Assembly (NCBI GenBank): GCA_014437165.1
Contig: GCA_014437165.1_4090.3
DNA: 64,000 nt
Reading direction: 5' to 3' (one strand)
Origin: a phage
Positions 19,542-35,475 of this stretch are shown piece after piece. Positions within the stretch are counted from its first letter, which is position 1, and each line of letters begins with the position of its first letter. The position numbers and the translations under genes are program-made. A model generated the notes under the pieces. It had not been told where the DNA came from and ran no database searches. It worked only from the letters and a program-made list of their open reading frames with translations.

Positions 19542-19560
19542 TTAAACACAAGTAGACAGG

Positions 19561-21419: not shown

Positions 21420-21447
21420 TTGCAAAGTATTGGGAAAGGTGTAGAAT
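21420..21447 (+). promoter_or_regulatory. promoter TTGCAA-16-TAGAAT followed by 5'-UTR hairpin
   Basis: precedes ATG 21505; hairpin CGGGGGAGACGCTCCCG between -10 and SD. Confidence 0.5.
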
Positions 21448-21504
21448 GTTTTACATCGAGACGGGGGAGACGCTCCCGACTCACTTTTAAAAGAGATTAA
21501 AACG

Positions 21505-21867
21505 ATGGCTACTAAAATCAATACTATCATGCTTAACCTGGTTTCTTTCCGTGAAGAGATGAAAGATCTTCCCGCTGAGACTGTACGGATTCACATTGCA
21601 GCTTATCGGGAATTGATTGCAATGTTGCCGCTTAAGCGTGAACAGTACGCCGCTACTGCAATGCTGGATGCAATGATCCATAAGATGATCCAGACTGATT
21701 TAACGATGGCTTATCAGTACATGGGCGAAATGTTTGCAGTGTATAGCAAGCCAGTACCAGGAATGGAAAGTACAGAAGTATTGCACGGCTTAAACTTAAA
21801 ACAAGATGCATGGGATAATATGCCTCGTTTCCTGGTATGGGCTGACAGTGGCAAGATTTACGAATAA
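21505..21867 (+). CDS. hypothetical protein (120 aa)
   Basis: ORF with own promoter + hairpin + SD. Confidence 0.6.
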   Translation: MATKINTIMLNLVSFREEMKDLPAETVRIHIAAYRELIAMLPLKREQYAATAMLDAMIHKMIQTDLTMAYQYMGEMFAVYSKPVPGMESTEVLHGLNLKQDAWDNMPRFLVWADSGKIYE

Positions 21868-21881
21868 GTTTAATAAAGTAC

Positions 21882-21909
21882 TTGCAAACTAAGTTTAAAA
21901 GCGTATAAT
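21882..21909 (+). promoter_or_regulatory. promoter TTGCAA-16-TATAAT (PeSL-like cassette with hairpin 21922-21940 GTGGGGAATAGTTCCCCAC)
   Basis: consensus hexamers; 5' hairpin immediately after TACATCA start region; SD AAGAGGA. Confidence 0.65.
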
Positions 21910-21961
21910 ACTTTACATCAGGTGGGGAATAGTTCCCCACTATAATTAAGAGGATTTAAAA

Positions 21962-22201
21962 ATGGCTAAATCAAAAATGTTCTTAGGACACAAAAACAAA
22001 ACTCAATGGAATGTAAGCCTTTGGATTAATAACGACGAATCATTATACCGGTTGGCCCAGGACTTTATTGCCGCTAACACTAATCGTAATGATGCGGCCC
22101 GTCATATGATGCTATTTTTAGAACAGACTGGACAAGATAAAACACCGGACGGCTTTAAGTATAGCACTACTGCGATCCGTGCGGCGATGGTTGGAATGTA
22201 A
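21962..22201 (+). CDS. hypothetical protein (79 aa); paralog of 24362-24601
   Basis: GHKNKTxWNVSLWINNDESLYR…TPDGFKYSTTAIRAAMVGM shared with 24362 product. Confidence 0.7.
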   Translation: MAKSKMFLGHKNKTQWNVSLWINNDESLYRLAQDFIAANTNRNDAARHMMLFLEQTGQDKTPDGFKYSTTAIRAAMVGM

Positions 22202-22283
22202 GAGAATAGATTAAAAGTACTATTGCACGGTGATAGTACTTTATAATAGATTTCTTTTATACAACAACGATAGGGGTAACAGC

Positions 22284-22550
22284 ATGAATATTATATACTT
22301 TGCAACGCGTGAACTTGCTCGGATTGCCGCACGCCAGGACGGGGCGACGTTTAAAGATATGGGCGTACAATCTGAACGTGGTAAACGTTGGGCCGTAGTA
22401 AAGCAAAGTACAGCCCGATCAATTCAGTACTGGCTATCTGCTTTAAAGCGTCCTGATAGTGTATCGCGTCGCGTGGTAGAAATAAAGCACGACCGCAAGG
22501 GCAACCGCGTTACTGTGTACAGTACTAAAAAGATAGCAGTACTTGAATAA
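22284..22550 (+). CDS. hypothetical protein; paralog of 34763-35158 (…HDRKGNRVTVYS)
   Basis: ATG 22284 chosen (track start 22230 lies inside the promoter). Confidence 0.6.
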   Translation: MNIIYFATRELARIAARQDGATFKDMGVQSERGKRWAVVKQSTARSIQYWLSALKRPDSVSRRVVEIKHDRKGNRVTVYSTKKIAVLE

Positions 22551-22556
22551 AAGTAC

Positions 22557-22584
22557 TTGCAAAGTAAGTTAAAAGGCGTATAAT
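22557..22584 (+). promoter_or_regulatory. promoter TTGCAA-16-TATAAT + hairpin GGTGGGGAAGTATTCCCCACC (22596-22616)
   Basis: same cassette architecture. Confidence 0.65.
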
Positions 22585-22634
22585 ACTTTCTATCAGGTGG
22601 GGAAGTATTCCCCACCACATAAGAGGATTTAAAA

Positions 22635-22865
22635 ATGACTATCATGTATATGACCGAAGTTAAAACTGTAAAAGATACTACCACTGATAAAACTACTTAC
22701 TTACAGCGGATCTGTGGTGTATGGCAACGTATCAGTAAAGCAAAGTACTATAAATTAACATCATATGCCAATCGTTCGGATTCATTCAGTACTGAAATAA
22801 AAGGTAATAAAGTACACCAATACGGCACTTATTACTATTATAGCCTGGACGCGATTGCAGTCTAA
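22635..22865 (+). CDS. hypothetical protein (76 aa)
   Basis: SD AAGAGGA 8 nt upstream. Confidence 0.6.
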   Translation: MTIMYMTEVKTVKDTTTDKTTYLQRICGVWQRISKAKYYKLTSYANRSDSFSTEIKGNKVHQYGTYYYYSLDAIAV

Positions 22866-23291
22866 GCAGTTTTTGAAAATATTTACAATTGCCGGTATTG
22901 ACTTATTTTGTCAGTACTGGCATAATGTATCTATTGAAACGAACAATTTGGCCCACGGGGTGCGGGAGTGTATCTATAGAAAAAGTAGTTTAGTACAGTT
23001 ACAATTGTGCACCCGGTGGGTTAGCTGTTGTCATGGGGTATATTATACCAGTACTGGATAGTGCTGTCAATACCTTTTTACTATTCAGTACTTAAAACTA
23101 TTTTCAAAAAGTACTTGCAAACTATGTTTAAAGGCGTATAATGTTTTACATCAGGACGGGGAATGAATAAGTAACTCCCCGTTAAGTAGCCCAGGAGTAA
23201 GGCACACGAAAAACTCCCCTGATAAAATAGTTTGACAATTGTTTTTAAAAGCGTATAATACTTACATCAACTACTGAATGAGGGTTACAAA

Positions 23292-23903
23292 ATGAAAACT
23301 ATCACTACTACTACTTATGTTATGGCTTTTTCTGAATTGAACGCAGAACAACAAACGTCAGCTATCGAACTGGTTCGGGATCGGGAACGTTCAAGCGGTG
23401 ATGATTTCTTTTCTGAGTCAGTGATCGAGTACTATAAAGAAACAGTACTACCAGAATATGGAATTGATGACGCTGATTTGCAATTCAGTGGTTTTTGGTC
23501 GCAGGGTGACGGTGCATCAATCAGTACTGACCACGTTGACGCAGTGAAGTTTTTACGCAAGGTAAGAGCATTAACTAAGTATCGCTCAATCCGTCACCTG
23601 CTGAATGAAGATGATTTGGCGATGAGTGTAAAGCGTTCTCACTCCCACTACTCGCATGAGAACACTGTAAGCGGGTACATTGAATCGGCTTACACTGATT
23701 TAACCGCAAAACAAGAAACGTTAGTTAATGAGCTTGAGGAACTACTCACTGATACTATTCGTGAATTATCCCGCAAGTTGTACCGTGATTTAGAGAATGC
23801 ATATGAGGATCAATTCACTACTGAAAACATTACGGCACTGATTGAGGGTAACGAATATCAATTCAATGTTATTGATGGCGTAGTAGAATCAATCGAATAT
23901 TAA
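23292..23903 (+). CDS. hypothetical acidic protein (203 aa)
   Basis: SD GAGGG; preceded by tandem promoter/structured leader element 23147-23275. Confidence 0.65.
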   Translation: MKTITTTTYVMAFSELNAEQQTSAIELVRDRERSSGDDFFSESVIEYYKETVLPEYGIDDADLQFSGFWSQGDGASISTDHVDAVKFLRKVRALTKYRSIRHLLNEDDLAMSVKRSHSHYSHENTVSGYIESAYTDLTAKQETLVNELEELLTDTIRELSRKLYRDLENAYEDQFTTENITALIEGNEYQFNVIDGVVESIEY

Positions 23904-23915
23904 TTCAAAAAGTAC

Positions 23916-23943
23916 TTGCAAACTAAGTTTAAAAGCGTATAAT
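23916..23943 (+). promoter_or_regulatory. promoter TTGCAA-16-TATAAT + hairpin GAGGCGGGGAATGGTTCCCCGCTC
   Basis: cassette before 23997. Confidence 0.65.
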
Positions 23944-23996
23944 ACTTTATATCGAGGCGGGGAATGGTTCCCCGCTCACACTAAAAGGGCAACAAA

Positions 23997-24263
23997 ATGA
24001 AAACTTTAAATATCACAACTGCACATCAATTGGTTCGGGATGCAATGGATCATGTGCAAGATTTCTTCCCTGATGTAAGTGTCGTAACTTATGAAAAAGG
24101 TACTTGGACTTATTCAACAATTAATGGTTATGAGCCTGATTTTGATGACCTGGAAGAAATGGAATTTAATTTTGATCTGCTGAATGATGCCGCCCGTGAA
24201 GTTGAAAACGATGTTCAATACATTGATGGAGTAGTCGCACCTGATGCAGTAAAAGGATTATAA
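23997..24263 (+). CDS. hypothetical acidic protein (88 aa)
   Basis: cassette + SD. Confidence 0.6.
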   Translation: MKTLNITTAHQLVRDAMDHVQDFFPDVSVVTYEKGTWTYSTINGYEPDFDDLEEMEFNFDLLNDAAREVENDVQYIDGVVAPDAVKGL

Positions 24264-24361
24264 AATTTAAAAAGTACTTGCATTGTAGTTAGATTAACGT
24301 ATAATACTTTATATCGAGGCGGGAGAATGGTTCTCCCGCTCAATCAAACGAGGATTTAAAA

Positions 24362-24601
24362 ATGGCTAGTACTAAATCTTACAACGGTCACAAAAACAAA
24401 ACTCATTGGAATGTTTCATTGTGGATTAATAACGATGAGTCATTGTACCGGATCGCTCAACGTTGGATCGCACAAAGTAGTACTAAAGATTATGCTGCTG
24501 AATGTATGTACCGCGAATTAAAAGCAAACGGTACTACTACAACGCCGGACGGATTCAAGTATAGCACTACTGCGATCCGTGCTGCAATGGTTGGAATGTA
24601 A
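24362..24601 (+). CDS. hypothetical protein; paralog of 21962-22201
   Basis: shared motifs. Confidence 0.7.
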   Translation: MASTKSYNGHKNKTHWNVSLWINNDESLYRIAQRWIAQSSTKDYAAECMYRELKANGTTTTPDGFKYSTTAIRAAMVGM

Positions 24602-24620
24602 CATTCAGTACTGAATCAAT

Positions 24621-24643
24621 GGCGGGGATTGGTTCCCGCCTTT
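24621..24643 (+). terminator. hairpin GGCGGGGATTGGTTCCCGCC + TTT
   Basis: after stop of 24362-24601. Confidence 0.5.
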
Positions 24644-24658
24644 ACTGAGGATTATCTA

Positions 24659-24943
24659 ATGAGCAAAGTAATTAACTATACAGTACTAAGTAAATCATTA
24701 TCTATCAGCCATTGCACCGATGGTTATTGGCTTTATGATGAAACACGCGGCATGAATTTAGCTATGCAGGAGAAAACTACAGATGCGGCATATCTTAAAG
24801 CACTGGAATACTACCAGAAGCGATTAAAGGAAGTAGAAAACGATTATAATAACCTGAAAGCGAAAGTAGATCATTTCGTCGGTCAATTCGTTGACGATGA
24901 CGAGGACGGGCACTACTGCGACCGTTGCGGATCTTACAGTTAA
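24659..24943 (+). CDS. hypothetical protein (C-terminal CxxC: HYCDRCGSYS)
   Basis: ATG 24659 after SD GAGGA (track start 24629 sits in hairpin). Confidence 0.55.
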   Translation: MSKVINYTVLSKSLSISHCTDGYWLYDETRGMNLAMQEKTTDAAYLKALEYYQKRLKEVENDYNNLKAKVDHFVGQFVDDDEDGHYCDRCGSYS

Positions 24944-24960
24944 GTACTGAGGATTATCTA

Positions 24961-25164
24961 ATGAGTGATTTAATTGAACGTATCAAAGAGCTTGAAGAAA
25001 AAGAATTACAGTTAATCGGCTTACAGAATAAAGTATTCCATGATTTAGGTGGCTTTATTAATGCCTGGGATAGTGGCGATCCTGAAGCGTTACCTGCTAA
25101 CCGCCAGGCAATGATCAATGATGTGCGTGATGTCTTTGAGTATGTTTTAAAGCAATTAAATTAA
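24961..25164 (+). CDS. hypothetical protein (68 aa)
   Basis: same SD sequence ACTGAGGATTATCTAATGAG as the previous gene (duplicated junction). Confidence 0.55.
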   Translation: MSDLIERIKELEEKELQLIGLQNKVFHDLGGFINAWDSGDPEALPANRQAMINDVRDVFEYVLKQLN

Positions 25165-25250
25165 AAAAGTACTTGCAATTAGTTTTTAGTACTGTATAAT
25201 AGTTTACATAGAGGGGAGAAATGGTTCTCCCTGGTAATGAGGAAAATACA

Positions 25251-25472
25251 ATGGCTAATATCACTACTCTTTCTCAACTGGAAGCACTGGTTAAATCTAT
25301 GCGGGAACATGCCGACAATATCGGCGTAAAAGATCCAGCCGTTTGCTTCTGCGACGAAATGAATGATGATACACTGGTAATAGCAGAAGTACAAGATATT
25401 TCTAACTATTCATCGCGTTACACTGGCGGCGTAGCAAATAAAGGTGACTTCTGTTTATACCTTACTAAGTAA
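25251..25472 (+). CDS. hypothetical protein (73 aa)
   Basis: ATG 25251 after hairpin and SD. Confidence 0.55.
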   Translation: MANITTLSQLEALVKSMREHADNIGVKDPAVCFCDEMNDDTLVIAEVQDISNYSSRYTGGVANKGDFCLYLTK

Positions 25473-25719
25473 TACAGAGGGGATCAATTGGTCCCCTTTC
25501 TTTTTTCAGTACTGAATCATTTAATAGACGGATCTATGCACCCAGTGGGTTAGAGACTATCTCGTCTTTATGTAGTAATTATGCCAGTACTGGATGCAGT
25601 TGTCAACAATTATTTTTCAAATACTTTTATATTAAAGTACTTGCTATTAGTTTTTAAACGCGTATAATGTTTTACATCGAAAGGGGAAACGGTTCCCCTG
25701 GTAACTAAGGAATAAGAAA

Positions 25720-25956
25720 ATGGTCGAACAAATAAAATCAACGTCTGCGAATGTAACGGGAACAGTATCACACTTTATTGGTGATGAATCGCGGGGCGTT
25801 CCCTATTGTGCTGTACATGTAAACACTGATGGCAACTACTGGTTTACGGTTTACGGATCTTATTCATTTGGTCTGCCTGGACATCAAAAAATCCTGGATA
25901 AAGTACAGCCAACGGGTAAAAATATCACTGCTGAAATGTTTTATAAAAAATCATAA
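25720..25956 (+). CDS. hypothetical protein (78 aa)
   Basis: cassette + SD AAGGAA. Confidence 0.6.
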   Translation: MVEQIKSTSANVTGTVSHFIGDESRGVPYCAVHVNTDGNYWFTVYGSYSFGLPGHQKILDKVQPTGKNITAEMFYKKS

Positions 25957-26040
25957 AGTACTTGATAATAGTTTTTAGTACTGTATAATATTTTACATCG
26001 CAAGGGGTAGCGGTTCCCCCTGGTAACTAAGGATAATCAA

Positions 26041-26340
26041 ATGAAAGTTGCAATCATCGCCCTGGCTTTATCTGTTTCCTCTTTCGCTGTTAACGCATCG
26101 TTAGATGTGAGTAGTGATAAATTCATTCAGTGCACCGTAGCAATGACCAATGAAAGTACTGGCGAGATTGTTTTAAAGGATTTAGAGATCCAGCCAGAAG
26201 CATTTAAAAGCGGCCCGTTCCATGAAGAAGACGAAAAAGGTAGCACGACAATTTATTACGATGTAAGTACTAAGCGTGGATCGGTCACGGTTATGGATAC
26301 TGAGAAAGTAACGCACACCGGAGTAATTAACTGTTTATAA
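26041..26340 (+). CDS. small secreted/periplasmic protein with Sec-type signal peptide (MKVAIIALALSVSSFAVNA|S)
   Basis: N-terminal K + hydrophobic core + A-x-A-like cleavage motif. Confidence 0.65.
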   Translation: MKVAIIALALSVSSFAVNASLDVSSDKFIQCTVAMTNESTGEIVLKDLEIQPEAFKSGPFHEEDEKGSTTIYYDVSTKRGSVTVMDTEKVTHTGVINCL

Positions 26341-26357
26341 TATAGTACTGAATCACT

Positions 26358-26386
26358 AGCCCACCTTAAACAGTGGGCTTTTTTGT
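26358..26386 (+). terminator. intrinsic terminator AGCCCACC-TTAAACA-GTGGGCT + TTTTTTG
   Basis: classic hairpin + T-run; identical copy at 27093. Confidence 0.8.
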
Positions 26387-26588
26387 TTTTGTATTATCGT
26401 AGTACTGCATACTTTAAAAATAGTTTTAAAATAGTAGTTGACATTACCACAAAAAGGCGTAGAATGTATTACATCAAGACGGGGAGCACTAAGTAGACCG
26501 CCAGTAAGTCGAACGAAAAACTGGACACGTCGATAAAACTTTGATACACTAATAAACGTAAACTAAACTTTAATTGAGGATTTATAAA

Positions 26589-27071
26589 ATGGCTAATGTA
26601 AAATCATTCCTGAAAGCACTGATTTCAAACGATACTGTTATTGCTGCTGAATTGTTGGCTGACCTGGATAACGATACCATGAAAGCAGTACGCAACAATT
26701 TTAACATTGCGTACAGTGAAGCTAAAGAACTGCAAGCCAAAAAGGTAGCAGAACTGGAAGAACAGAAAAAAGCCCGTGAAGCCGAACTGCAAGCAACAAT
26801 CGAAAGTATCCAGGCGGCGGTGGCTGGATTGGATCTGGAAGTAGTTGTAGAAATGGCACATAAAGCCCTGGCGGTTAAGTATGGTGAAGATAAGCCAGAA
26901 TCTAAACCTAAAAAATGGATTCAAGAACGTGTTACTGTAGTACTTGATAACGGGGAAGAACATATGATTCCTGTACGCGGTAACTGCATTGCGGTAGTAC
27001 TGGACGCTATCAAAGAAAGCGGTATGACTCGCGAGGAATGGATCGAAGCTCATCGCAAAGTTGAAGCATAA
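26589..27071 (+). CDS. hypothetical coiled-coil protein (160 aa)
   Basis: ATG 26589 after SD GAGGA; Lys/Glu/Ala-rich heptad-like segment. Confidence 0.65.
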   Translation: MANVKSFLKALISNDTVIAAELLADLDNDTMKAVRNNFNIAYSEAKELQAKKVAELEEQKKAREAELQATIESIQAAVAGLDLEVVVEMAHKALAVKYGEDKPESKPKKWIQERVTVVLDNGEEHMIPVRGNCIAVVLDAIKESGMTREEWIEAHRKVEA

Positions 27072-27092
27072 CAATTAAAGTACTGAATCACT

Positions 27093-27120
27093 AGCCCACC
27101 TTAAACAGTGGGCTTTTTTG
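27093..27120 (+). terminator. intrinsic terminator (identical to 26358-26386)
   Basis: hairpin + T-run. Confidence 0.8.
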
Positions 27121-27356
27121 TGTCTGTAGTATTCCAGTCCACCAGCACCGCCTAGAATCGATTCTAACGCATTAAACTGATTATCTGATACATCGCCCTA
27201 GCTGGTGGCGTTAAGGTCGTTAGAATGCGATTGAGAGCGTTTAAAGTATTTTGCAAAAAGTAATAAAAAGTACTTGCACGATTAAGAGATTAGCGTATAA
27301 TGTTTTACATCGAGAGGGGGAAACGGTTCTCCTTCCAAATCAAAGGAATCAAAACA

Positions 27357-27584
27357 ATGGCTATTATCATTACTCGCGTATCTGGTACTACTGGCAACGA
27401 ACAAGTAGTTGCAGTCATTACTAACAAGGCAGGTGCGGAATTGCAAAATGCAATGAATACCTGGGCCGTTAATGAGTTCGGTCAGTGGGCAAGTGTAGCA
27501 TACATTGAAACCTATCAAGTGCCGTCGATTAGTTTAACTGATTTGGGCGTTGAGCGTATCCTTTGCCTGGATGAATTAAATTAA
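27357..27584 (+). CDS. hypothetical protein (75 aa)
   Basis: ATG 27357 after SD AAAGGAA. Confidence 0.55.
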   Translation: MAIIITRVSGTTGNEQVVAVITNKAGAELQNAMNTWAVNEFGQWASVAYIETYQVPSISLTDLGVERILCLDELN

Positions 27585-27671
27585 AAAAAGTACTTGCAAA
27601 GTAAATCGAATAAAGTATAATACATTACATCAAGGGGAGAAATGGTTCTCCCTGATAATGAGGAAACTAAA

Positions 27672-27884
27672 ATGGCTATCATTACTAAAATCAAAGTTAA
27701 CAAGACTATCGTTAAACTGGTAGAAGTGAAAGAAGGTTATAAAGTATCTTGGTGCGGTATGTATCGGACGTTCGCAGATATAGATGATGCGATCAATTAT
27801 TACAGTGACACGGTTAAAAACTTTGTTCGTGCTGATGTGGTTATGGCAGTGGCAACATATAAAGCAGCGAAAGAAAGTAAGTAA
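27672..27884 (+). CDS. hypothetical protein (70 aa)
   Basis: ATG 27672 after SD GAGGAAA. Confidence 0.55.
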   Translation: MAIITKIKVNKTIVKLVEVKEGYKVSWCGMYRTFADIDDAINYYSDTVKNFVRADVVMAVATYKAAKESK

Positions 27885-27895
27885 AAATATTATCA

Positions 27896-27925
27896 CAGTA
27901 CTATTGACATAGTTTGATAGTACTG
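27896..27925 (+). promoter_or_regulatory. promoter with operator-like palindrome CAGTACTAT-TGACA..TTG-ATAGTACTG spanning the -35 and spacer
   Basis: near-identical copies at 30405-30434 and 38799-38828. Confidence 0.55.
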
Positions 27926-27975
27926 GCATAATAGATTTTATCAAGACGACACATATTAATTTAAGGAATACTAAA

Positions 27976-28299
27976 ATGGCTAAAACTATCATCAACACCG
28001 TTTCCCTGGCTGCAATCCATGCAATCAATGTTGACGGTAAACGTTGGACTGATTCATATGGCAATACTTATCATTCTTGTCATGTAAGCGTTGAACTGGA
28101 TAACGGCTTGAATGATCTGGCGGTTGAATCATTTACTTATGGCTATGAGGATGCATATCAACAAACGGCGGTATCACTCTTAAAGGAATCAGTAGACGGG
28201 CTTGATACTGTTGAAACCTCCCTCTATCGTTTGTGCAATGATCTTAATATCCCGTTGCATTGTACTGTACAGAATGTTAAACGCAAAAAAGATCTTTAA
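27976..28299 (+). CDS. hypothetical protein; paralog of 34344-34667
   Basis: shared …RWTDxxGNTYHSCxVS…ETFTYGY…VKRKKD. Confidence 0.65.
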   Translation: MAKTIINTVSLAAIHAINVDGKRWTDSYGNTYHSCHVSVELDNGLNDLAVESFTYGYEDAYQQTAVSLLKESVDGLDTVETSLYRLCNDLNIPLHCTVQNVKRKKDL

Positions 28300-28379
28300 T
28301 TAGCTTTACTTTATGCAGATACTTTGATATAGTGTCTGCATAGGAGAAAGAAATTAAATCAACTTAAGAGGATAGTAAA

Positions 28380-28649
28380 ATGAAAAATATCAGTACTTTA
28401 ATCGATGCAGGTACACATGTTCGTCGGTCTATGGTTGCAACCAGTTCTACAAAACAAGTACCAAGCGGTTATCTTGTATTTGTGCACGATGGAAAACTCC
28501 TGGAACGTTCAATCAATTTTGATGTTAAAAACAATTGCCGTTTTATTATCTTTCGCCGTGAACAATATAAAATTGATTTGCCAGCGAAGCCCATTAGCGG
28601 GGCGTACAACGTGCAATCATTGTTTGAGCGTCAACCATACACCTATTGA
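28380..28649 (+). CDS. hypothetical protein (89 aa)
   Basis: SD AAGAGGA. Confidence 0.55.
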   Translation: MKNISTLIDAGTHVRRSMVATSSTKQVPSGYLVFVHDGKLLERSINFDVKNNCRFIIFRREQYKIDLPAKPISGAYNVQSLFERQPYTY

Positions 28650-28700
28650 TCAAATCATCGTCAGTGGTCGATTTAGGCCGCTTATATTGGGGATTATACC

Positions 28701-29069
28701 ATGAACGTTAATCAAGTACTGAATGAGATCGAAAGCATCATTAAACCGATGAAGCGTACTGATGCTATGTTAACACCGGAAGAATGCCGCCTTTATGAGC
28801 GTTACAGCGTCGAACAAGTCCAGGCAATGGCTAGTATCCTTCCGGTTAGTAGTACTGCTAAAGGTGGCCCAGGTTTAACCGTACAGGATAAAATCGATCT
28901 CCTTAAGCTCAATGGCTATGTAGTTGATGTCGATAAAGAAAAAGTAATGGTATATGATAGTAGTATTGAGCAAGACTATTATAACTATTGCATGATTGAA
29001 AATGATCCTATTGATTCTATCATTGAAAATATGGTTAACAAAGCATTAAAAGATTTAGATTTAGTTTGA
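28701..29069 (+). CDS. hypothetical protein (122 aa)
   Basis: ORF with ATG start. Confidence 0.55.
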   Translation: MNVNQVLNEIESIIKPMKRTDAMLTPEECRLYERYSVEQVQAMASILPVSSTAKGGPGLTVQDKIDLLKLNGYVVDVDKEKVMVYDSSIEQDYYNYCMIENDPIDSIIENMVNKALKDLDLV

Positions 29070-29143
29070 CAGTACTGTAAAAAGGCGTATAATGTTTTAC
29101 ATAGAGGGGGGAAATGGTTCTCCCCAATAACAGGAGATACAAA

Positions 29144-29296
29144 ATGAAACAATACAACGCTCGGTTTGATGTTACTATCGGTAACGGCAAAGGTCAATTC
29201 TCTTTCAGTACTCGACGCAGTTATACAGAAAACTTCCTGCGTAATTGTGCACTGACCGCCGCACAAATTAAACATTACTTTCAGGCTAAAAAATGA
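29144..29296 (+). CDS. hypothetical small protein (50 aa)
   Basis: ATG 29144 after SD CAGGAGA. Confidence 0.5.
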   Translation: MKQYNARFDVTIGNGKGQFSFSTRRSYTENFLRNCALTAAQIKHYFQAKK

Positions 29297-29382
29297 AATC
29301 ATTAGCTTATTACAGTTCGGCCCTGGTCGGTGCATTGATCGCGGCGTTGTTAGTAACCTATCTATTCTTTATGGTGATTTAA
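29293..29382 (+). CDS. hydrophobic micro-protein (29 aa, single TM: MKSLAYYSSALVGALIAALLVTYLFFMVI)
   Basis: ATGA overlap with previous stop; below track cutoff. Confidence 0.4.
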   Translation: MKSLAYYSSALVGALIAALLVTYLFFMVI

Positions 29383-29517
29383 ATGAATCCTAACGGTATA
29401 GTTTACAGTACTCCTAAAACTAAAGCAGATAAAGCTAAAGCACGTAAAGCGAAAGTACAGGAATACATCAAGCAAGGCATGACACGAAAGGCCGCAGTAC
29501 TTAAAGCTAAAAAATAA
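29383..29517 (+). CDS. small basic protein (44 aa, Lys/Ala-rich)
   Basis: ATG immediately after previous stop. Confidence 0.4.
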   Translation: MNPNGIVYSTPKTKADKAKARKAKVQEYIKQGMTRKAAVLKAKK

Positions 29518-29742
29518 ATGAAAAAAGTGGTTGACTTCGGTCAGCCATTTTGTTATTATATAATCATTGAGAGATAGCTCACTAGCCCACAGGGTGCAGG
29601 AGTGTATCTATTGTATAATGTTTGAGTACTGAAAACTATTTTAAAGTATTTGATAAAAAGTACTTGCAAACTATCTCAATAAGCGTATAATGTTTTACAT
29701 CGAAAGGGGAAACGGTTTCCCCTAGTAATAAGGAAACGAATC

Positions 29743-30084
29743 ATGACTATCTCAATTGCTCAATCTAACTTTGAAAACGAAATCATCGCCCAGGCACTGC
29801 GTTTAAATGATGGTCGGGCCGAAATCAATTACGGTTTCAATTCAGGCGGTTGTGAAAACTATCAGTACTTTGTAACGGCTGATGGCTGTGTCCTGGGCAT
29901 CAATACAGTTATTGTAAACATTCAGAAAATTAATTTCAATGATCCAGACGATAGCCAGTTTTACATTGTAGGCGTAGACGTGAATTATGAGGATGATTCA
30001 CTAACTGATGATCACACTGGCGAGAAGTTAGAAAGTGCATACGGTGAAGATGATTATCAGTCCGGTCCAGAAGATTTCGAATAA
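29743..30084 (+). CDS. hypothetical acidic protein (113 aa)
   Basis: cassette + SD AAGGAAA. Confidence 0.6.
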   Translation: MTISIAQSNFENEIIAQALRLNDGRAEINYGFNSGGCENYQYFVTADGCVLGINTVIVNIQKINFNDPDDSQFYIVGVDVNYEDDSLTDDHTGEKLESAYGEDDYQSGPEDFE

Positions 30085-30179
30085 TATAAAAAAAATAGTT
30101 TGACAATAGATTATAGTACTGTATAATAAGTTACATGAAGGGGAGAAATGATTCTCCCCACTAACAGAGAGAAAACAAA

Positions 30180-30392
30180 ATGGCTAATATCTGCACTGTA
30201 CTGAAAAATGCAAAACAAGTTTTATTTTCTGATCACGATCATTTAAACAAGGATATTACTGGCGTTCGGAATATCAAAGATGTAAAAAGTGTTATGGGTA
30301 TCTATTGCAATATGAAACGTGTTGGAACGTTCGGCGATAAAGTACTATACCAGGCAGGGGATTACAATTTTACACTGACTATTATTAACTAA
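30180..30392 (+). CDS. hypothetical protein (70 aa)
   Basis: cassette + SD. Confidence 0.55.
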   Translation: MANICTVLKNAKQVLFSDHDHLNKDITGVRNIKDVKSVMGIYCNMKRVGTFGDKVLYQAGDYNFTLTIIN

Positions 30393-30404
30393 AAAATATT
30401 ATCA

Positions 30405-30434
30405 CAGTACTATTGACACTGATTGATAGTACTG
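30405..30434 (+). promoter_or_regulatory. promoter with operator-like palindrome (copy 2)
   Basis: CAGTACTATTGACACTGATTGATAGTACTG then GCATAATA. Confidence 0.55.
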
Positions 30435-30475
30435 GCATAATAACTTTTATCAACTACACTACTAAGGAATTAAAA

Positions 30476-30655
30476 ATGGCTATCATCGCAAAAACTGAAA
30501 TCATCGGCCTGGATTCTATCATCATGTCGTTTGAAGATCAAAAAGGTATGTATGTAGTTTCCTATGGTGATTATGTTCGGGAGTATGAAACGGTAGACGA
30601 AGCCTTTGAAAGTTACATTCGCCAGGTGAATAAAGCATACGACGATTACCGCTAA
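30476..30655 (+). CDS. hypothetical protein (59 aa)
   Basis: ATG 30476 after SD AAGGAA. Confidence 0.5.
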   Translation: MAIIAKTEIIGLDSIIMSFEDQKGMYVVSYGDYVREYETVDEAFESYIRQVNKAYDDYR

Positions 30656-30754
30656 AATATATTACCAGTACTATTAAAGATATTGACAACGTTTGATAGT
30701 ACTGTATAATAAGTTTTATAAACAGTAGTTAACTTAACCTAAGAGAGAAACAAA

Positions 30755-30898
30755 ATGATCGCACTGGATTCATTCATCGACGCAGTACTGGCAAAAACTG
30801 GCGAGGATCTTACAGCAGAACAATACGCAATGATCGAGCAATGCCAGCAAGACGGTAAATCGGTGAAAGATACTGTTAAGATTATCCGCAAGATGTAA
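30755..30898 (+). CDS. hypothetical small protein (47 aa)
   Basis: SD AGAGAGAAA; followed by terminator 30905-30933. Confidence 0.45.
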   Translation: MIALDSFIDAVLAKTGEDLTAEQYAMIEQCQQDGKSVKDTVKIIRKM

Positions 30899-30904
30899 GA
30901 TTAT

Positions 30905-30933
30905 AGCCCACTGGTTAACGCTGGTGGGCTTTA
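30905..30933 (+). terminator. hairpin AGCCCACTGG..CTGGTGGGCT + TTTAATT
   Basis: stem-loop after stop. Confidence 0.5.
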
Positions 30934-31003
30934 ATTCATTACCCTATACAATGCCAGTACTAAACCGTTTATCTCGTTAGAATGCGTTACAGGACGTTTA
31001 ACA

Positions 31004-31201
31004 ATGATTAGCATGAAATCAGTACAAAAACAAATAGAAACATTATCAAAAATTAAACGTAAACAGTACTCCTTAGAATATACAATCAATGGTAACTATC
31101 ATCTAATGAAAGAGAATAATTTTATAGTCATTGATGAATCATTGCAAATCATTAGTATAGTACTGAAAGCATTAATCAATGACAGAAAAAAATTAAAATA
31201 A
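31004..31201 (+). CDS. hypothetical protein (65 aa)
   Basis: ORF with ATG start. Confidence 0.45.
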   Translation: MISMKSVQKQIETLSKIKRKQYSLEYTINGNYHLMKENNFIVIDESLQIISIVLKALINDRKKLK

Positions 31202-31532
31202 ACTATTGACAATATCATCAAGTACTGGCATAATACTTACATCAAGACGAGAACGTCACTAACCCATAGGGTGCACAAATGTAACTGTATAATATTGATC
31301 AAAAAATGATCTGATCAATACTTGATCAATTTGCGTAAAGTAGTATAATTCTATGCAGTTGGTTAGACGAAAGGTTATGATTAGTAGTGCAAGTGTATAA
31401 AAATTTTCATGGTGTATCGTTTCGCACATATGGGGATGAATATGTGGTATCATGTGGATTGGAAAAAGTAAGAACAAGTAATATTATTGTCGCATTACAG
31501 TACTATAGTATTTTTATAATGAGGTTAAAATA

Positions 31533-31790
31533 ATGGCTGTAGGATTCGCGAAAGATGGGGCCGAACAAGACGAGATTAACGCAGTGATTCAGGCCGCCGT
31601 TAACCACGCTAGAAAGCAAATTAACGCACAAATAGAATCACTGATACATTGCCTCGACTGCGGCGATATAATCCCTGAGAATCGACGCCAGGCCGTTAAG
31701 GGATGTAAGTACTGCATAACTTGCCAGGAGGATCATGATAGTACTTTTAAACGTCCCCCGCGTAATTGTTGGCATAGATCTATGAGATAA
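31533..31790 (+). CDS. DksA/TraR-family C4 zinc-finger protein
   Basis: C-x2-C-G-x2-I-P-x2-R-R-x-A…C-x2-C-Q pattern (CLDCGDIIPENRRQAVKGCKYCITCQ). Confidence 0.7.
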   Translation: MAVGFAKDGAEQDEINAVIQAAVNHARKQINAQIESLIHCLDCGDIIPENRRQAVKGCKYCITCQEDHDSTFKRPPRNCWHRSMR

Positions 31791-31853
31791 AAAGTATTGA
31801 CAGTACTGAAAGATAGTGTATAATATTTTATATCTTAACTGAGGATTGAAATC

Positions 31854-32210
31854 ATGGGAATACAACATATCACGCGTACTACTGACAATGGCGAGATCAC
31901 TGGCTATCAAGTACAGGGCAAAGTAGCACAATTGCAGTACTGGTTTGTTAAACGTGGAATCATTGCACCGGATCTTGATTATGACCGTGTAGCGTTTATT
32001 GATTCTCTTTATGTTGATCCTGATAGTCGGGGCAATGGTGAAGGTAACGAATTAATGAATGCCTTTATTGATGCCGCCGATGATTCAGATTGTATCATTT
32101 TAGAATGCGATACGGGAGAAGATAACGCCTTTAATCTTAAAGAATGGTACGAAGGTTTCGGATTCGAGGTACTGATCGATAGTGAATATCCTATCATGAT
32201 TTTATCATAG
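31854..32210 (+). CDS. probable small GNAT-fold acetyltransferase-like protein
   Basis: motif-A-like V.P..RG.G.G..L segment (YVDPDSRGNGEGNELMNAF). Confidence 0.45.
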   Translation: MGIQHITRTTDNGEITGYQVQGKVAQLQYWFVKRGIIAPDLDYDRVAFIDSLYVDPDSRGNGEGNELMNAFIDAADDSDCIILECDTGEDNAFNLKEWYEGFGFEVLIDSEYPIMILS

Positions 32211-32288
32211 TACTTGCATTTAGTTTTCAGTACTGTTATAGTACTTACATCAAGGGGAAACATCTTCCCCTACTAAGAGGAAATAAAA

Positions 32289-32477
32289 ATGGAAAACTTA
32301 TCAAGTATTTTAGTACAAGATGATTTCGGTAATCCTGGAAGTGCTATCATTGTTCGGGGTAATAAAGCAACGTTTGTTATTGCTGGTGGACCTGTACAGC
32401 GTAGCATTAAAAATAATGCTGTTACCATTAATAATGTACGCTATCGCTTAGATAAAGAATTGATTCATAAACTTTAA
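32289..32477 (+). CDS. hypothetical protein (62 aa)
   Basis: cassette + SD GAGGAAA. Confidence 0.55.
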   Translation: MENLSSILVQDDFGNPGSAIIVRGNKATFVIAGGPVQRSIKNNAVTINNVRYRLDKELIHKL

Positions 32478-32561
32478 AAAGTATTTGACAATAGATTATA
32501 GTACTGTATAATAAGTTACATGAAGGGGAGAAATGATTCTCCCCACTAAGAGGAAAGAAAA

Positions 32562-32774
32562 ATGCAAGGTCAACTAATCGTTCGTAAATGGTCTGATACT
32601 AACGAAAAACCGTGGGATGTACAATACATCGGACCGGATGGGGTATCACGTTATCAGCCTGGCGTAACGCATAGTACTGAGCAATTTGCCAACGCTCACC
32701 GCGAACGCCTGTTAGAATCCATGAAACAGGGATTCTGTGAAAAATTCATTCAAGATCATTGGCTGAAAGATTAA
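32562..32774 (+). CDS. hypothetical protein (70 aa)
   Basis: cassette + SD. Confidence 0.55.
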   Translation: MQGQLIVRKWSDTNEKPWDVQYIGPDGVSRYQPGVTHSTEQFANAHRERLLESMKQGFCEKFIQDHWLKD

Positions 32775-32791
32775 TATAAGGAGTACAGCTT

Positions 32792-32884
32792 ATGCAAATG
32801 AATCCGATGATTATTGTTTTAGCTGTACTTATGATCATTCATGCAATAGTAGAAGTATTAACGCAATCAGGAGTAATAAAATGA
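32792..32884 (+). CDS. hydrophobic micro-protein (30 aa, single TM)
   Basis: SD AAGGAG; MQMNPMIIVLAVLMIIHAIVEVL…. Confidence 0.4.
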   Translation: MQMNPMIIVLAVLMIIHAIVEVLTQSGVIK

Positions 32885-33054
32885 TCCAAGTAGAATTATC
32901 AGTACTGAAAGATCTGTTTTATCGGTTAGGTACTAATGGCGAGTATCCTAAAAGTGATACCGCAAAACTTTTTGTATCACTCGACTTATGGCAACGCGAA
33001 CAATTAGTAATGTCCTGGCGTAAAGGTAAAGAAGATAGCGAGGTGAAAGCATGA
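32881..33054 (+). CDS. hypothetical small protein (57 aa)
   Basis: ATGA coupling. Confidence 0.4.
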   Translation: MIQVELSVLKDLFYRLGTNGEYPKSDTAKLFVSLDLWQREQLVMSWRKGKEDSEVKA

Positions 33055-33200
33055 AAGAATTCTTATTCGAAGTAGTGTTTCAAGGTGTCGGTAGCAACCA
33101 ACTGATTCGCTCAAGTGGTTACAATGTTAACCAGGCATGGAATAACATTAAACAAATGTACCCGAACGCTATCACCTATCGCAACCCGAAACAAGTTTAA
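33051..33200 (+). CDS. hypothetical small protein (49 aa)
   Basis: ATGA coupling; followed by terminator/repeat element. Confidence 0.4.
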   Translation: MKEFLFEVVFQGVGSNQLIRSSGYNVNQAWNNIKQMYPNAITYRNPKQV

Positions 33201-33514
33201 AAATAATTGAAAAAGGGATTGACTCCGGTCAGTCCCTTTGCTATTATATACGCATAGAAACAAATCAGCCCACAGGGTGCATAAATGTATCTATTGTTTG
33301 CTGGTGGCTAGTACTGAAAACTATTTTTAAAAAGTACTTGCATTGTACTTAGAATCAAGTATAATATTTTACATCAGGACGGGGAACGAAACAAGTAACC
33401 CCGTTAAGTAGTCCAGGAGTAAGACATAAGAAAACCTCCCCTGATAAAATAGTTTGACAATAGAAAGTAAACGAGTATAATACTTACATCAACCACTGAT
33501 AAGGAAACATTAAA

Positions 33515-33790
33515 ATGCGGATTCTACTGACAGCTAACGAAATCGAACAAGTACTGACTACTAACCTGGAAGACTGGAAACGTGAAGCAGATATCCAGGC
33601 GGTTCAATGGCTTAACGATAAGTTAACGCCGGATGACTTAAGCAAGATTGTAGATCCTCAATTCTACGAAGATATTCACGACACCGCGTTAAGCGTCGAG
33701 GATGTACTTGATAAGCACTACATTGATATTGATTTGCAGGTTTACGGTCGTAAAAACTTTATCACTATTCACGACATTTACAATAATTAA
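33515..33790 (+). CDS. hypothetical acidic protein (91 aa)
   Basis: preceded by structured leader repeat 33371-33490. Confidence 0.6.
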   Translation: MRILLTANEIEQVLTTNLEDWKREADIQAVQWLNDKLTPDDLSKIVDPQFYEDIHDTALSVEDVLDKHYIDIDLQVYGRKNFITIHDIYNN

Positions 33791-33851
33791 GTATTGACAA
33801 AGTATCTTAGTACTGTATAATAGTTTACATCTTAATTAAAAAGGAAACATC

Positions 33852-33986
33852 ATGAAAGCGAACAAAGCAGCAAAGAAACAAACCAATCCCCTGGCTGGCT
33901 GGAAGTTAGATTTATCCGATGAAGTAGTTTGCACAAATAAGAATGTAGTTGAAGCTGAAAAGAAATTACGAAAAGAAAACAAATAA
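33852..33986 (+). CDS. hypothetical small basic protein (44 aa)
   Basis: promoter + SD AAGGAAA. Confidence 0.4.
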   Translation: MKANKAAKKQTNPLAGWKLDLSDEVVCTNKNVVEAEKKLRKENK

Positions 33987-34071
33987 GTATTGACAAAGTA
34001 TCTTAGTACTGTATAATAGTTTACATCAAGGGGGGAATGGTTCCCCTCCTAACAAAGAGAGAGAAATAAAA

Positions 34072-34254
34072 ATGGCTAAGTGCACTATCTGCAAGAAAGA
34101 AATAGTATTAGTTCCAAGTGCCCGTGAACGTGCCGCTCGGTTCGGTGGCAAAGCGTCAGACTATACAAAAATGTTTACTACCCATGCAGCTTGCCAGGTA
34201 GCAAAACGTTCACAAGAAAGCGTAGAATTAATGCGTAAACTTTCCAAAAAATAA
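34072..34254 (+). CDS. hypothetical protein (60 aa)
   Basis: cassette + SD. Confidence 0.5.
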   Translation: MAKCTICKKEIVLVPSARERAARFGGKASDYTKMFTTHAACQVAKRSQESVELMRKLSKK

Positions 34255-34343
34255 GTATTGACAAAGTATCTTAGTACTGTATAATAGTTTACATCAAGCG
34301 AGGGGAATGGTTCCCCTCCTAACTAAAAGAGAGAGAAATAAAA

Positions 34344-34667
34344 ATGGCTATGATCCTTACCCAGAAAGTAGAACTGAAAATTGTAACCTCCTTTGACATT
34401 AAAGTTAATCGCTGGACTGATCGGAACGGTAACACTTACCACTCTTGCTACGTGTCCGCGTTAATTGGCGACCGCTGGGAAGACTTGGGACATGAAACCT
34501 TTACTTACGGTTACGGTACACAAGGAGAATACACGGGCTTGGAGATCATTAAAGAAACCGTTATAGGTTTCAACCCGAAAGAAAAAGTTATTCACCGCAT
34601 CGAAAAAGAGATTAACAAAGAAATAACAGTTCGCTACTACGATGTAAAACGTAAGAAAGACATGTAA
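34344..34667 (+). CDS. hypothetical protein; paralog of 27976-28299
   Basis: shared motifs. Confidence 0.65.
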   Translation: MAMILTQKVELKIVTSFDIKVNRWTDRNGNTYHSCYVSALIGDRWEDLGHETFTYGYGTQGEYTGLEIIKETVIGFNPKEKVIHRIEKEINKEITVRYYDVKRKKDM

Positions 34668-34762
34668 TAGAATCCATTTAAAGTACTATTTGACATTGCC
34701 CAGATAGTACTTTATAATAGACTCTAACTTGTAGTACTAACTCAACTAATAGGATGTATACC

Positions 34763-35158
34763 ATGATTACTAAATTCTACGCTACCCGTGAAGCTGCCCG
34801 TATTGTTGCACGCGAGGAAGGAGCAGCATTTAAAGACATGGGCAAAGATGCACCGAAAGGTCAACGCTGGGCCGTACAGTTCAAAGAAATCTCTGATATC
34901 GTGAATTCACCGGAGCCAGTACTAACAGCAGCAGAACTAAAACGAGCGGATTTACTGGCGGCAGTACTTAACGCACAAGATGAATTTATCGCTGATTCTG
35001 ATATCAAAGTACAGACAAACCATACCGCTTGGACTCACGCGGATCACCTGGCAAACCTTAAGCGTCCAAGTGAACTGGTTCGCAACCAGAAAGAGATCCG
35101 ACACGACCGTAAGGGTAATCGTGTAACAGTATACAGTAAACGCCGCCAGGTTATCTAA
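34763..35158 (+). CDS. hypothetical protein; paralog of 22284-22550
   Basis: F.TRE.ARI.AR..GA.FKDMG…HDRKGNRVTVYS shared. Confidence 0.6.
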   Translation: MITKFYATREAARIVAREEGAAFKDMGKDAPKGQRWAVQFKEISDIVNSPEPVLTAAELKRADLLAAVLNAQDEFIADSDIKVQTNHTAWTHADHLANLKRPSELVRNQKEIRHDRKGNRVTVYSKRRQVI

Positions 35159-35180
35159 TAACTTGCAGTACTAACAACAC

Positions 35181-35205
35181 GGCGGGATCAGTTCCCGCCT
35201 TTTTT
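35181..35205 (+). terminator. intrinsic terminator GGCGGGATCAGTTCCCGCC + TTTTTT
   Basis: hairpin + T-run. Confidence 0.7.
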
Positions 35206-35220
35206 ATAGGATAAACTAAA

Positions 35221-35475
35221 ATGATTAAGGTACAACTATCTAAAGATAATATCTTGCGGGTACACTATAAAGCACCACAGAGAATCATCACAAAGGCCGT
35301 ACAGCTTGCTAATGAGTTTATTAATGGTAACCTATTACCAAGGAAGTTAAGCAACGGAAAACTGCGTGTAATCGATGTAGACACTAACAACAGAATAGTA
35401 ATTGAGAACACAGGAAAGATAAACCTATATGAACACCAACAATATAATAAGAAAATAAAACTAATATCACGTTGA
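35221..35475 (+). CDS. hypothetical protein (84 aa)
   Basis: SD AGGATAAA. Confidence 0.55.
   Translation: MIKVQLSKDNILRVHYKAPQRIITKAVQLANEFINGNLLPRKLSNGKLRVIDVDTNNRIVIENTGKINLYEHQQYNKKIKLISR

Follow-up and report, generated by a model that had tools for sequence, protein, structure and literature searches.

RNA signals in phage early leaders have precedents, but the fold, the cross-family spread and the gene independence of the element described here have none. The element lies in a 64,000-nucleotide (nt) stretch of phage DNA (GenBank assembly GCA_014437165.1, contig GCA_014437165.1_4090.3), called the window below, which contains exactly three copies, with RNA domains at 23150-23223 (copy A), 26478-26531 (copy B) and 33373-33445 (copy C). 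Each copy is a self-contained cassette of a promoter and a non-coding RNA in the early region of the phage. The core of this RNA is predicted to be an H-type pseudoknot, because two stems, S1 and S2, interleave; a closing helix, P1, surrounds it, and an inner hairpin, H1, is optional.

Among described systems, the lambda nut site and the leader of the ribosomal RNA (rRNA) operons (rrn; boxB-boxA-boxC) resemble the element as leader RNA signals that lie just past early or tandem host-polymerase promoters and combine a conserved single strand with a structure bearing an A-rich loop; in Autographiviridae, a canonical boxA is present in the same leader. The element differs in being a pseudoknot rather than a 5-bp hairpin with a pentaloop, in its unrelated sequence and in implying no N-like protein. 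Where boxB has a stem of about 5 base pairs (bp) and a GNRA-like pentaloop, S2 has 4-5 bp around a loop of 16-17 nt that holds one strand of S1. The window matches boxA (GCUCUUUAACAA-like) no more often than chance predicts, and never close to a copy; a nut site in this phage was rejected accordingly. The put RNA of phage HK022 consists of two adjacent stem-loops near early promoters, occurs once or twice per genome, needs no phage protein and acts on the zinc-binding domain of the polymerase beta-prime subunit. The element is likewise a promoter-adjacent structured RNA; in topology, put has no pseudoknot, whereas the element joins a pseudoknot to a closing helix.

The H-type pseudoknot of the preQ1-I riboswitch begins with stem 1, a short L1 and stem 2, and continues with L2, stem 1', an A-rich L3 and stem 2'. 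The element has the same strand order as that fold, together with a core of ~30-36 nt and invariant loop bases; it differs in an S1 of only 3 bp, an extra invariant 5' tail (UAAGUA), the closing P1 and the lack of an expression platform. Type III antitoxin RNAs (ToxI) are pseudoknotted units of ~36 nt with an A-rich segment, and pseudo-ToxI mimics made by phages are a known means of counter-defence. Unlike ToxI, the element is single rather than arrayed in tandem, and no toxin gene lies downstream. In local alignments to a ToxI sequence, 0-118 of 500 shuffles scored as well, depending on the variant, and 0 of 500 only for Aeromonas phage MJG; the similarity is borderline, and the window copies do no better than chance. 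The pseudoknot in the T4 gene 32 leader is a protein-binding site near the transcript 5' end, through which one gene is autoregulated by its own product. The element is also a pseudoknot near the 5' end of a phage transcript, but it precedes unrelated genes in unrelated phages.

Each PeSL of the T4-type phages joins a terminator stem-loop to an early promoter; these cassettes flank variable early genes, appear to move between phages and are regarded as recombination points (PMC2839356, PMC4122927). Similarly, a promoter-plus-hairpin plan is common to 121Q-, rV5- and phi92-like phages and extends even to the T7 A1 start region (ATCGAGAGGG...). The element may be a mobile cassette of this kind: copy B has its promoter between identical terminators, and the cassette of the form seen in copy A (type A) occurs in three phage taxa with different genes behind it. 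The difference is that the element cassette also encodes a pseudoknot RNA supported by covariation.

Several further resemblances were dropped. The segment UAAGUCGACCGCCUG occurs at 16S rRNA positions 871-885, and eight motif variants compared with the rrnH operon scored no better than shuffles, the sole exception (family member L043 against 23S rRNA, 1 of 200 shuffles) failing multiple testing. Likenesses seen by eye to the hammerhead core (CUGAUAA...GAAA), the UAA/GAN module, the ribosomal protein S8 site (AAGUC/GAUAC) and the type I-F CRISPR repeat handle (CUAAGAAA) fall on positions that are unconserved or covary freely.

Copies in the window and their fold

When a covariance model of the core was run over the whole window with filters off, only the three copies were returned, at 53.1 (A), 50.9 (B) and 50.3 bits (C), and the runner-up reached 7.7 bits. 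The pattern ACGGGGA-N5-30-GTTAAGTAG has two matches in the window against 0.00 expected, and TAAGTAG-N8-TAAG-N6-GAAAA has three against 0.12 expected; by these counts and the model scores, the copies are beyond chance. A candidate fourth copy at 19807-19844 (7.4 bits) was rejected as a mere TAAGTAG match in the non-coding terminus region. The copies are single, 3-7 kb apart, and form no tandem array. A preliminary description of this DNA had listed A and C as near-identical and B as diverged, and all three copies are indeed where it had placed them. In an alignment run from promoter 1 to the start codon, A and C hardly differ up to the end of promoter 2, and B shares with them promoter 1, the first transcript bases and a central block of ~40 nt. 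It had also given every copy a promoter on either side. Promoter 1 is indeed present throughout; the second TTGACA-TATAAT promoter holds for A and C, and in B only a degenerate TTGATA-17-TAAACT is found. The parts of the three cassettes, with the open reading frames (ORFs) behind them, are as follows.

23115..23142, + strand: promoter 1 of copy A, TTGCAA-16-TATAAT, predicted start at ~23148-23150
23150..23223, + strand: RNA domain of copy A (model match, fold, pair covariation)
23150-55 / 23218-23, + strand: P1 of copy A, ATCAGG/CCTGAT
23156-62 / 23176-82, + strand: H1 of copy A, ACGGGGA/TCCCCGT
23183-88 and 23198-200, + strand: single strand UAAGUA and linker UAA of copy A
23189-91 / 23201-03, + strand: S1 of copy A, GCC/GGC
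23194-97 / 23214-17, + strand: S2 of copy A, GGAG/CTCC, with loop ACACGAAAAA at 23204-13
23232..23259, + strand: promoter 2 of copy A, TTGACA-16-TATAAT, predicted to drive ORF 23292-23903
23292-23903, + strand: ORF after copy A, 203 amino acids (aa), phrog_5162, function unknown
26438..26465, + strand: promoter 1 of copy B, TTGACA-16-TAGAAT
26478..26531, + strand: RNA domain of copy B, without the inner hairpin (model match)
26478-81 / 26528-31, + strand: P1 of copy B, GACG/CGTC, extendable by ATC 26473-75 / GAT 26532-34
26490-95 and 26505-07, + strand: single strand UAAGUA and UAA of copy B
26496-98 / 26508-10, + strand: S1 of copy B, GAC/GTC
26501-04 / 26521-24, + strand: S2 of copy B, CCAG/CTGG, with loop GAACGAAAAA at 26511-20
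26541..26569, + strand: promoter 2 remnant of copy B, TTGATA-17-TAAACT, found by eye and not among the listed promoter-scan sites
26589-27071, + strand: ORF after copy B, 160 aa, phrog_27871
33338..33365, + strand: promoter 1 of copy C, TTGCAT-16-TATAAT
33373..33445, + strand: RNA domain of copy C (model match, fold)
33373-78 / 33440-45, + strand: P1 of copy C, ATCAGG/CCTGAT
33379-84 / 33399-404, + strand: H1 of copy C, ACGGGG/CCCCGT
33405-10 and 33420-22, + strand: single strand UAAGUA and UAA of copy C
33411-13 / 33423-25, + strand: S1 of copy C, GTC/GAC
33416-19 / 33436-39, + strand: S2 of copy C, GGAG/CTCC, with loop ATAAGAAAAC at 33426-35
33454..33481, + strand: promoter 2 of copy C, TTGACA-16-TATAAT, predicted to drive ORF 33515-33790
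33515-33790, + strand: ORF after copy C, 91 aa, phrog_14947
26358..26379 and 27093..27114, + strand: intrinsic terminators upstream and downstream of the copy B cassette, identical hairpins AGCCCACCTTAAACAGTGGGCT followed by TTTTTTG

The pseudoknot runs from the 5' strand of S1 (GNC) through 2 nt, the 5' strand of S2 (4-5 nt), UAA, the 3' strand of S1 (GN'C) and a 10-nt purine-rich loop with R-GAA to the 3' strand of S2, and the single strand UAAGUA lies directly 5' of it. All three window copies fit the family core, defined as (U/A)AAGUA-GNC-NN-stem-(N)UAA-GN'C-N4-GAA-N2-3-stem with both S1 and S2 complementary. About 15 unpaired bases, in UAAGUA, UAA and R-GAA, are invariant across unrelated phages. 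Pairs were counted on 46 distinct sequences. S1 is paired in all of them, its middle pair being AU in 29, UA in 9, CG in 7 and GC in 1, and its third pair shifts to U-A in Enterobacter phage Entb_48 and to U-G in member L199. In S2, none of the four core pairs is ever broken, and the forms seen are CG/GC, CG/GC/UA and UA/AU/UG. The three window copies by themselves display three S1 middle pairs (C-G, A-U and U-A), two versions of S2 and two of P1, all complementary. The retrieval patterns put N at the variable columns, namely the middle pair of S1 and three pairs of S2, and did not extend to P1; the pairing was therefore not selected for by the search. G-U pairs arise only when the promoter-sense strand is read, which is in keeping with a sense-strand RNA rather than the opposite strand or duplex DNA.

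P1 is formed by 4-9 nt, starting 0-3 nt past S2, that pair with a strand upstream of UAAGUAG, and at least 14 different complementary strand pairs were found. In a permutation test that combined the upstream region with another class's tail, none of 2000 shuffles reached the observed mean. Most T7-like phages have GUCAA/UUGAC and other T7-like contigs have GAUUAG/CUAAUC, GUCGGU/ACCGAC, GUCAUC/GAUGAC, GCUAA/UUAGC or GUGAA/UUCAC, and more distant members have AUCGAAG/UUUCGGU and AUCAAGACG/UGUCUUGGU. In the T7-like phages the 5' strand of P1 sits in the loop of a local hairpin, and both the stem of this hairpin and the loop-to-tail pairing covary.

The preliminary description had proposed a structured RNA in which an ATCAGG/CCTGAT helix encloses an inner hairpin, and the covariation check set beforehand was passed, with strong covariation in the helices. 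The minimum free energy folds of A and C contain both the enclosing helix and the inner ACGGGGA/TCCCCGT hairpin (z about -3), but copy B has no inner hairpin. The emphasis shifts accordingly. The enclosing helix is conserved across the family, and the inner hairpin is its least conserved part, missing in copy B and several relatives (LTH01, Erwinia phage Hallingskeid, L039 and L043). The conserved part proper is the stretch that had been elided, namely UAAGUA-GNC, a stem of 4-5 bp, and a loop with UAA-GN'C and R-GAA(A). By sequence and pairing, what had been noted as a local repeat is one family across at least five phage lineages, T7 among them.

As had been noted, the genes behind the copies differ: the ORFs at 23292, 26589 and 33515 belong to three unrelated PHROG families, all of unknown function, and no toxin-family match was found among them. 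A terminator scan detected no G+C hairpin with a U-run in 23143-23291, 26466-26588 or 33366-33514. Inspection found no ATG, GTG or TTG inside the element, and a small ORF within it was rejected for want of a start codon; the in-frame read of T7 from +1 stops at a UAG that is unconserved in T3-like leaders. The terminator pair around copy B brackets its promoter, element and 160-aa ORF, which gives this cassette the look of an insertable unit with direct repeats as borders.

Distribution and genome context

A BLAST search with the 80-nt type A element matched 45 phage records at 85-97% identity, in Asteriusvirus, in rV5-like phages of 142-146 kb (Vequintavirinae) and in phi92-like phages (Justusliebigvirus), with different genes following. 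The phi92-like phage muut repeats the arrangement of window copy C, with an identical order of element, promoter 2 and ORF. Only a handful of rV5-like and phi92-like records were matched, which suggests that in these phages the element is a sporadic, movable accessory cassette. With copy B as the query, Yersinia phage phiA1122 and E. coli phage 13a were matched at ~550-630 bp from the left end. The core lies in 13a between the annotated host-polymerase promoters A1 (504-540) and A2 (631-668), and the same core lies between A1 and A2 in T7, T3, 13a and phiA1122; other Autographiviridae carry it too. A pattern scan places it in T7 at 551-586, or +54 to +89 of the A1 transcript, and the covariation-supported T7 fold covers +54 to +97; in the T7 interval from A2 to A3 the model detects no second, degenerate copy. 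The element lies on the sense strand and no more than ~100 nt downstream of a sigma-70-type promoter in the window copies, in T7 and in 13a.

Pattern scans also found the core in T3-like phages, in many other contigs of 37-45 kb, in Munch-like jumbo phages and in two unassigned contigs. The T3 form as a BLAST query matched 502 phage records, at one site each, from hosts in Escherichia, Klebsiella, Salmonella, Yersinia, Enterobacter, Shigella, Citrobacter, Serratia, Erwinia and Pantoea. Pantoea phage LIMEzero, MJG and Entb_48 are distant members reached by BLAST and the model, not by pattern, and further distant forms occur in the Munch-like phages and in Hallingskeid. In a metagenome scan, all 28 matches had complementary stems. 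BLAST gave no counterpart in E. coli genomes or plasmid records, and a pattern scan of 185,579 GTDB species genomes gave 48 matches, of which one was real, a mis-binned T3-like contig. In these searches the element was confined to virulent phages of Enterobacterales, plus Aeromonas, and the cassette appears to move between phage lineages.

Nowhere in the window did an Rfam 15 family reach its gathering score. With hits accepted up to E = 10, copy A overlapped only chance-level unrelated matches, and nothing fell on the motif in 13a, LIMEzero, MJG, Entb_48, CMSTMSU or A7_1. No description of the motif was found in the searchable literature, where the T7 sequence occurs in three papers, as promoter fragments only; older subscription literature on T7, where an earlier remark is possible, was not covered. 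The family is thus apparently undescribed so far.

Some members show peculiarities of their own. In Munch-like phages (L024, Salmonella phage Munch, 3700-3712; L018, ~1290) the promoter after the motif has a Chi sequence, GCTGGTGG, in its spacer: TTGACAAGCTGGTGGGAAATTGAGATAAT. Escherichia phage CMSTMSU (L146, flagged UNVERIFIED_ORG) has small deletions in the motif at 278-319, TCCAGGAG being reduced to TCGAG and CTCCCC to CTCCC; these may be sequencing errors rather than natural variation, and a 3-bp S2 is still left. A rrn-type boxA with a shared extension, CGCTCTTTAACAATCTGG (in Entb_48 ...AATCCGG), occurs at 4167-4184 in L043, 955-972 in L145, 534-551 in L144 and ~793-810 in L002. In several Autographiviridae genera this extended boxA stands 10-45 nt after the pseudoknot, or after A3 in the T7-like phages.

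The phage itself is a 121Q/PBECO4-like jumbo coliphage (Asteriusvirus, 90-97% identity). From ~20.1 to 40.1 kb the window carries dozens of small + strand ORFs. Each is equipped with a ribosome-binding site and a promoter of the sigma-70 type, and a short G+C hairpin opens its transcript. About 45 early cassettes at 20171-40063 (repeat families D1-D4, D6 and D10) are built on one plan: AAAAGTACTTGCA or TTGACA, 16 nt, TATAAT, TTTACAT, a GGGGAGAA-N4-TTCTCCCC hairpin where the transcript begins, and lastly a ribosome-binding site. Their first transcribed bases, ACATCGAGAGGGGG..., resemble the T7 A1 start ATCGAGAGGGACACGG, and the same plan is present in rV5-like and phi92-like phages. Several phage families thus seem to draw on a common stock of promoter cassettes, analogous to the T4-type PeSLs. 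The element may be counted as a further cassette in this modular region, with a promoter and a 5' structure but without an ORF.

The annotation of the close relative vB_Ec-M-J gives a direct terminal repeat at bases 1-21,525, and the element matches of this phage at 3.7 and 6.7 kb fall within it; its third copy is expected near 14.2 kb, in front of the ORF at 14,324. From the correspondence with this 21,525-bp repeat, the physical left genome end, with the start of the terminal repeat, is probably near 19.4 kb of the window, where there is a non-coding stretch at 19400-20170. With the left end so placed, the three copies would lie ~3.7, 7.0 and 13.9 kb from the genome end, in the early region (the 21.5-kb terminal repeat), and a virion genome with the repeat at both ends would therefore carry six. 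The early-cassette array stops near 40.1 kb, in agreement with a repeat of ~21 kb. No tRNA or tmRNA gene was found in the window.

Possible roles of the RNA

We tentatively favour the reading that the element is an autonomous promoter-plus-RNA cassette whose RNA binds a conserved host component. Host sigma-70 RNA polymerase would start at promoter 1 (the start is predicted), and the first 55-75 nt of the transcript would fold into a closed domain made up of P1, which takes in the 5' end, the optional H1 and the pseudoknot. The RNA itself would be the product: upon DNA entry, the pseudoknot would display its invariant bases to a conserved enterobacterial host component, which the RNA would titrate or recruit without regulating the gene behind. 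That the RNA is the product is suggested by stems that vary freely while ~15 unpaired bases stay invariant across unrelated phages, by downstream genes that are unrelated and usually have their own promoter, and by the sporadic, movable presence in rV5-like and phi92-like phages. A host component is the simplest candidate for the recognised partner because these phages share little else. Autonomy is favoured because promoter 2 frees the downstream gene from the element, because copy B forms an insulated cassette with a single gene and a terminator that would serve no purpose after an antiterminator, and because three copies lie in the terminal repeat, six in a virion genome with both repeats. 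The preliminary description had also raised a small RNA gene nested between tandem promoters, a prediction close to this reading; the window copies do have a promoter of their own, and no terminator follows the domain.

Going further, the pseudoknot could represent a new class of phage-made RNA effector, the first molecule made after DNA entry, which sequesters or redirects a conserved enterobacterial protein in trans; we consider this rather unlikely as it stands. Candidate targets would be an RNase, an abortive-infection toxin, Rho or another RNA-binding factor, and the RNA would then be a takeover or counter-defence tool shared horizontally by T7-like podoviruses and by jumbo, rV5-like and phi92-like myoviruses.

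Several points weigh against the autonomous cassette. A free small RNA without a defined 3' end would need processing, and the canonical boxA after the motif in Autographiviridae fits a cis role on the transcription complex at least as well. The invariance of TAAGTAG, TAAG and GAAA was largely imposed by the search patterns, so that an independent test of it comes only from members derived by BLAST or the model (the window, L020-L026 and L143-L145), and these deviate once each, with AAAGUAG for UAAGUAG, UAAA for UAAG and GAAC for GAAA. S1 has only 3 bp, and S1 and S2 may form together or alternate. In the T7-like phages the 3' strand of P1 is the A2 -35 hexamer, so some of its conservation may be promoter constraint. 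The support is drawn from sequence, and the host partner is hypothetical.

The main rival, which we judge unlikely, is a promoter-proximal processivity or antitermination element of the lambda nut, HK022 put or rrn leader type, in which the nascent pseudoknot would bind its own polymerase or Nus factors and make the bound polymerase resistant to Rho or intrinsic terminators. It would account for an element that always lies ~20-90 nt from an early host-polymerase start, for a conserved single strand and a structured part with an A-rich loop that recall boxA plus boxB, and for 1-3 copies per genome, like nutL and nutR. It also gains from the canonical boxA (GCTCTTTAACAA) after the motif in Autographiviridae, which lies 54-81 nt from the motif start in L043, L039, Entb_48 and MJG, and from the boxA after A3 in T7-like phages; 35 of ~47 podovirus-type copies have a boxA within 600 nt. 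However, the same count is 0 of ~22 for myovirus-type copies, the window copies included. The element is present only on promoter 1 transcripts, and promoter 2 (A2 and A3 in T7) feeds the same genes without it. The one-gene cassette of copy B has its own terminator, which a factor-independent antiterminator would defeat, and the window copies sit in mid-stretch between terminators rather than at the starts of stretches. The handful of rV5-like and phi92-like records, too, suggests no constant part of an early region.

The remaining explanations were each given a small or minimal probability. P1 may bury the 5' end and the compact knot may block RppH or RNase E, stabilising the promoter 1 transcript; P1 begins 2-8 nt from the predicted start in myovirus-type copies, ~40 other early cassettes of the window have a plain hairpin at the same position, and type A looks like such a hairpin with a pseudoknot put in its loop (27635-27660 compared with 23150-23223). 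We regard such a 5'-end protection or RNase barrier as quite improbable: a hairpin that merely confers stability could have any sequence, yet ~15 unpaired bases do not vary from one phage family to another, the neighbouring cassettes do with simple hairpins, and the element is missing from transcripts that start at promoter 2. A small P1-closed pseudoknot could also sense a host metabolite at infection. Stems that covary, junction and loop bases that do not change and a closing P1 make up a pattern typical of aptamers, and H-type pseudoknots of the preQ1-I type are similar in size (~35 nt) and in strand order (a, L1, b, L2, a', A-rich L3, b'). This riboswitch-like role is very doubtful, as there is no expression platform (the scan gave no terminator after the element, and inspection showed no obvious pairing with a ribosome-binding site), the following gene usually has its own promoter, no Rfam riboswitch model matches even at E = 10, and the downstream genes are unrelated and of unknown function. 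An attenuator, which the preliminary description had entertained, would be a terminator/antiterminator switch over the downstream gene. GGGGA in type A can pair with either of two UCCCC segments, which makes alternative folds conceivable, but these segments are missing in copy B and T7-like members, and in no copy is there a terminator-like hairpin with a U-run between promoter 1 and the ORF; this idea now has hardly any probability left. A role at the DNA level, as an UP or activator element of promoter 2 or as recombination debris between promoter cassettes with no RNA function, is extremely improbable and is virtually eliminated by the covariation. In most T7-like phages and MJG the motif does abut the next -35 hexamer, with an A-tract where an UP element would be, and cassettes in the early region do shuffle, as in the T4-type PeSL analogy (PMC2839356, PMC4122927). 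But compensatory changes are seen in all three helices, among them G-U pairs possible on the sense strand alone, and where the tail is not a -35 hexamer the partner strand changes too (GAUUAG/CUAAUC, GUCGGU/ACCGAC, GCUAA/UUAGC). The spacing to the next -35 hexamer varies from ~2 to ~55 nt, and L039 and L043 have no obvious second promoter; an UP element of promoter 2 was rejected on this variable spacing and the covarying helices.

The possible consequences reach beyond this phage. No lytic phage has been studied better than T7, whose A1 promoter region serves as a standard template in transcription biochemistry. A pseudoknot in the A1 transcript would be a new feature of this classic system, apparently unnoticed so far in the A1 leader, and long A1 templates used in vitro include the fold, which could influence pausing or termination assays. 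The motif is present in ~500 sequenced phages, many of them therapy candidates. Podoviruses and jumbo myoviruses, which have almost nothing else in common, appear to exchange regulatory RNA cassettes, which would extend the PeSL idea of modular shuffling past the T4-type phages. If the partner is a host factor, as the autonomous cassette reading supposes, the element would give access to an early step of takeover or counter-defence in which RNA, not protein, is the agent.

Other repeats in the window

The 8-bp palindrome CAGTACTG occurs 52 times in the window against 0.76 expected and is densest at 19.7-40.6 kb. It often stands in promoter spacers just 5' of TATAAT (TAGTACTGTATAAT) and also forms inverted pairs, for example at 20336-20369; a regulator of phage or host origin may bind to it. 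Repeat family D20 (33199-33293, 36662-36756 and 39414-39508; also 29524-29551) has a 12-bp hairpin, AAAGGGATTGACTCCGGTCAGTCCCTTT, that holds a TTGACT -35 hexamer and is followed by (T)GCTATTATAT, the -35 box thus being buried in a long inverted repeat.

Outside the early region, about nine paralogous units spaced ~1.2 kb apart lie on the - strand at 5420-16030 (D5, D7, D13 and D19). They share conserved segments, some of which end in an inverted repeat, GCCAGTAC...GTACTGGC. Diverged tandem paralogues are found at 41387-47569 (D12, D14 and D16) and at 56715-63813 (D8, D9, D11, D15 and D18), and both sets keep conserved internal blocks, such as TTAGGAACAAACTATCAAGA and GAAGAGTATTACTTCCA.

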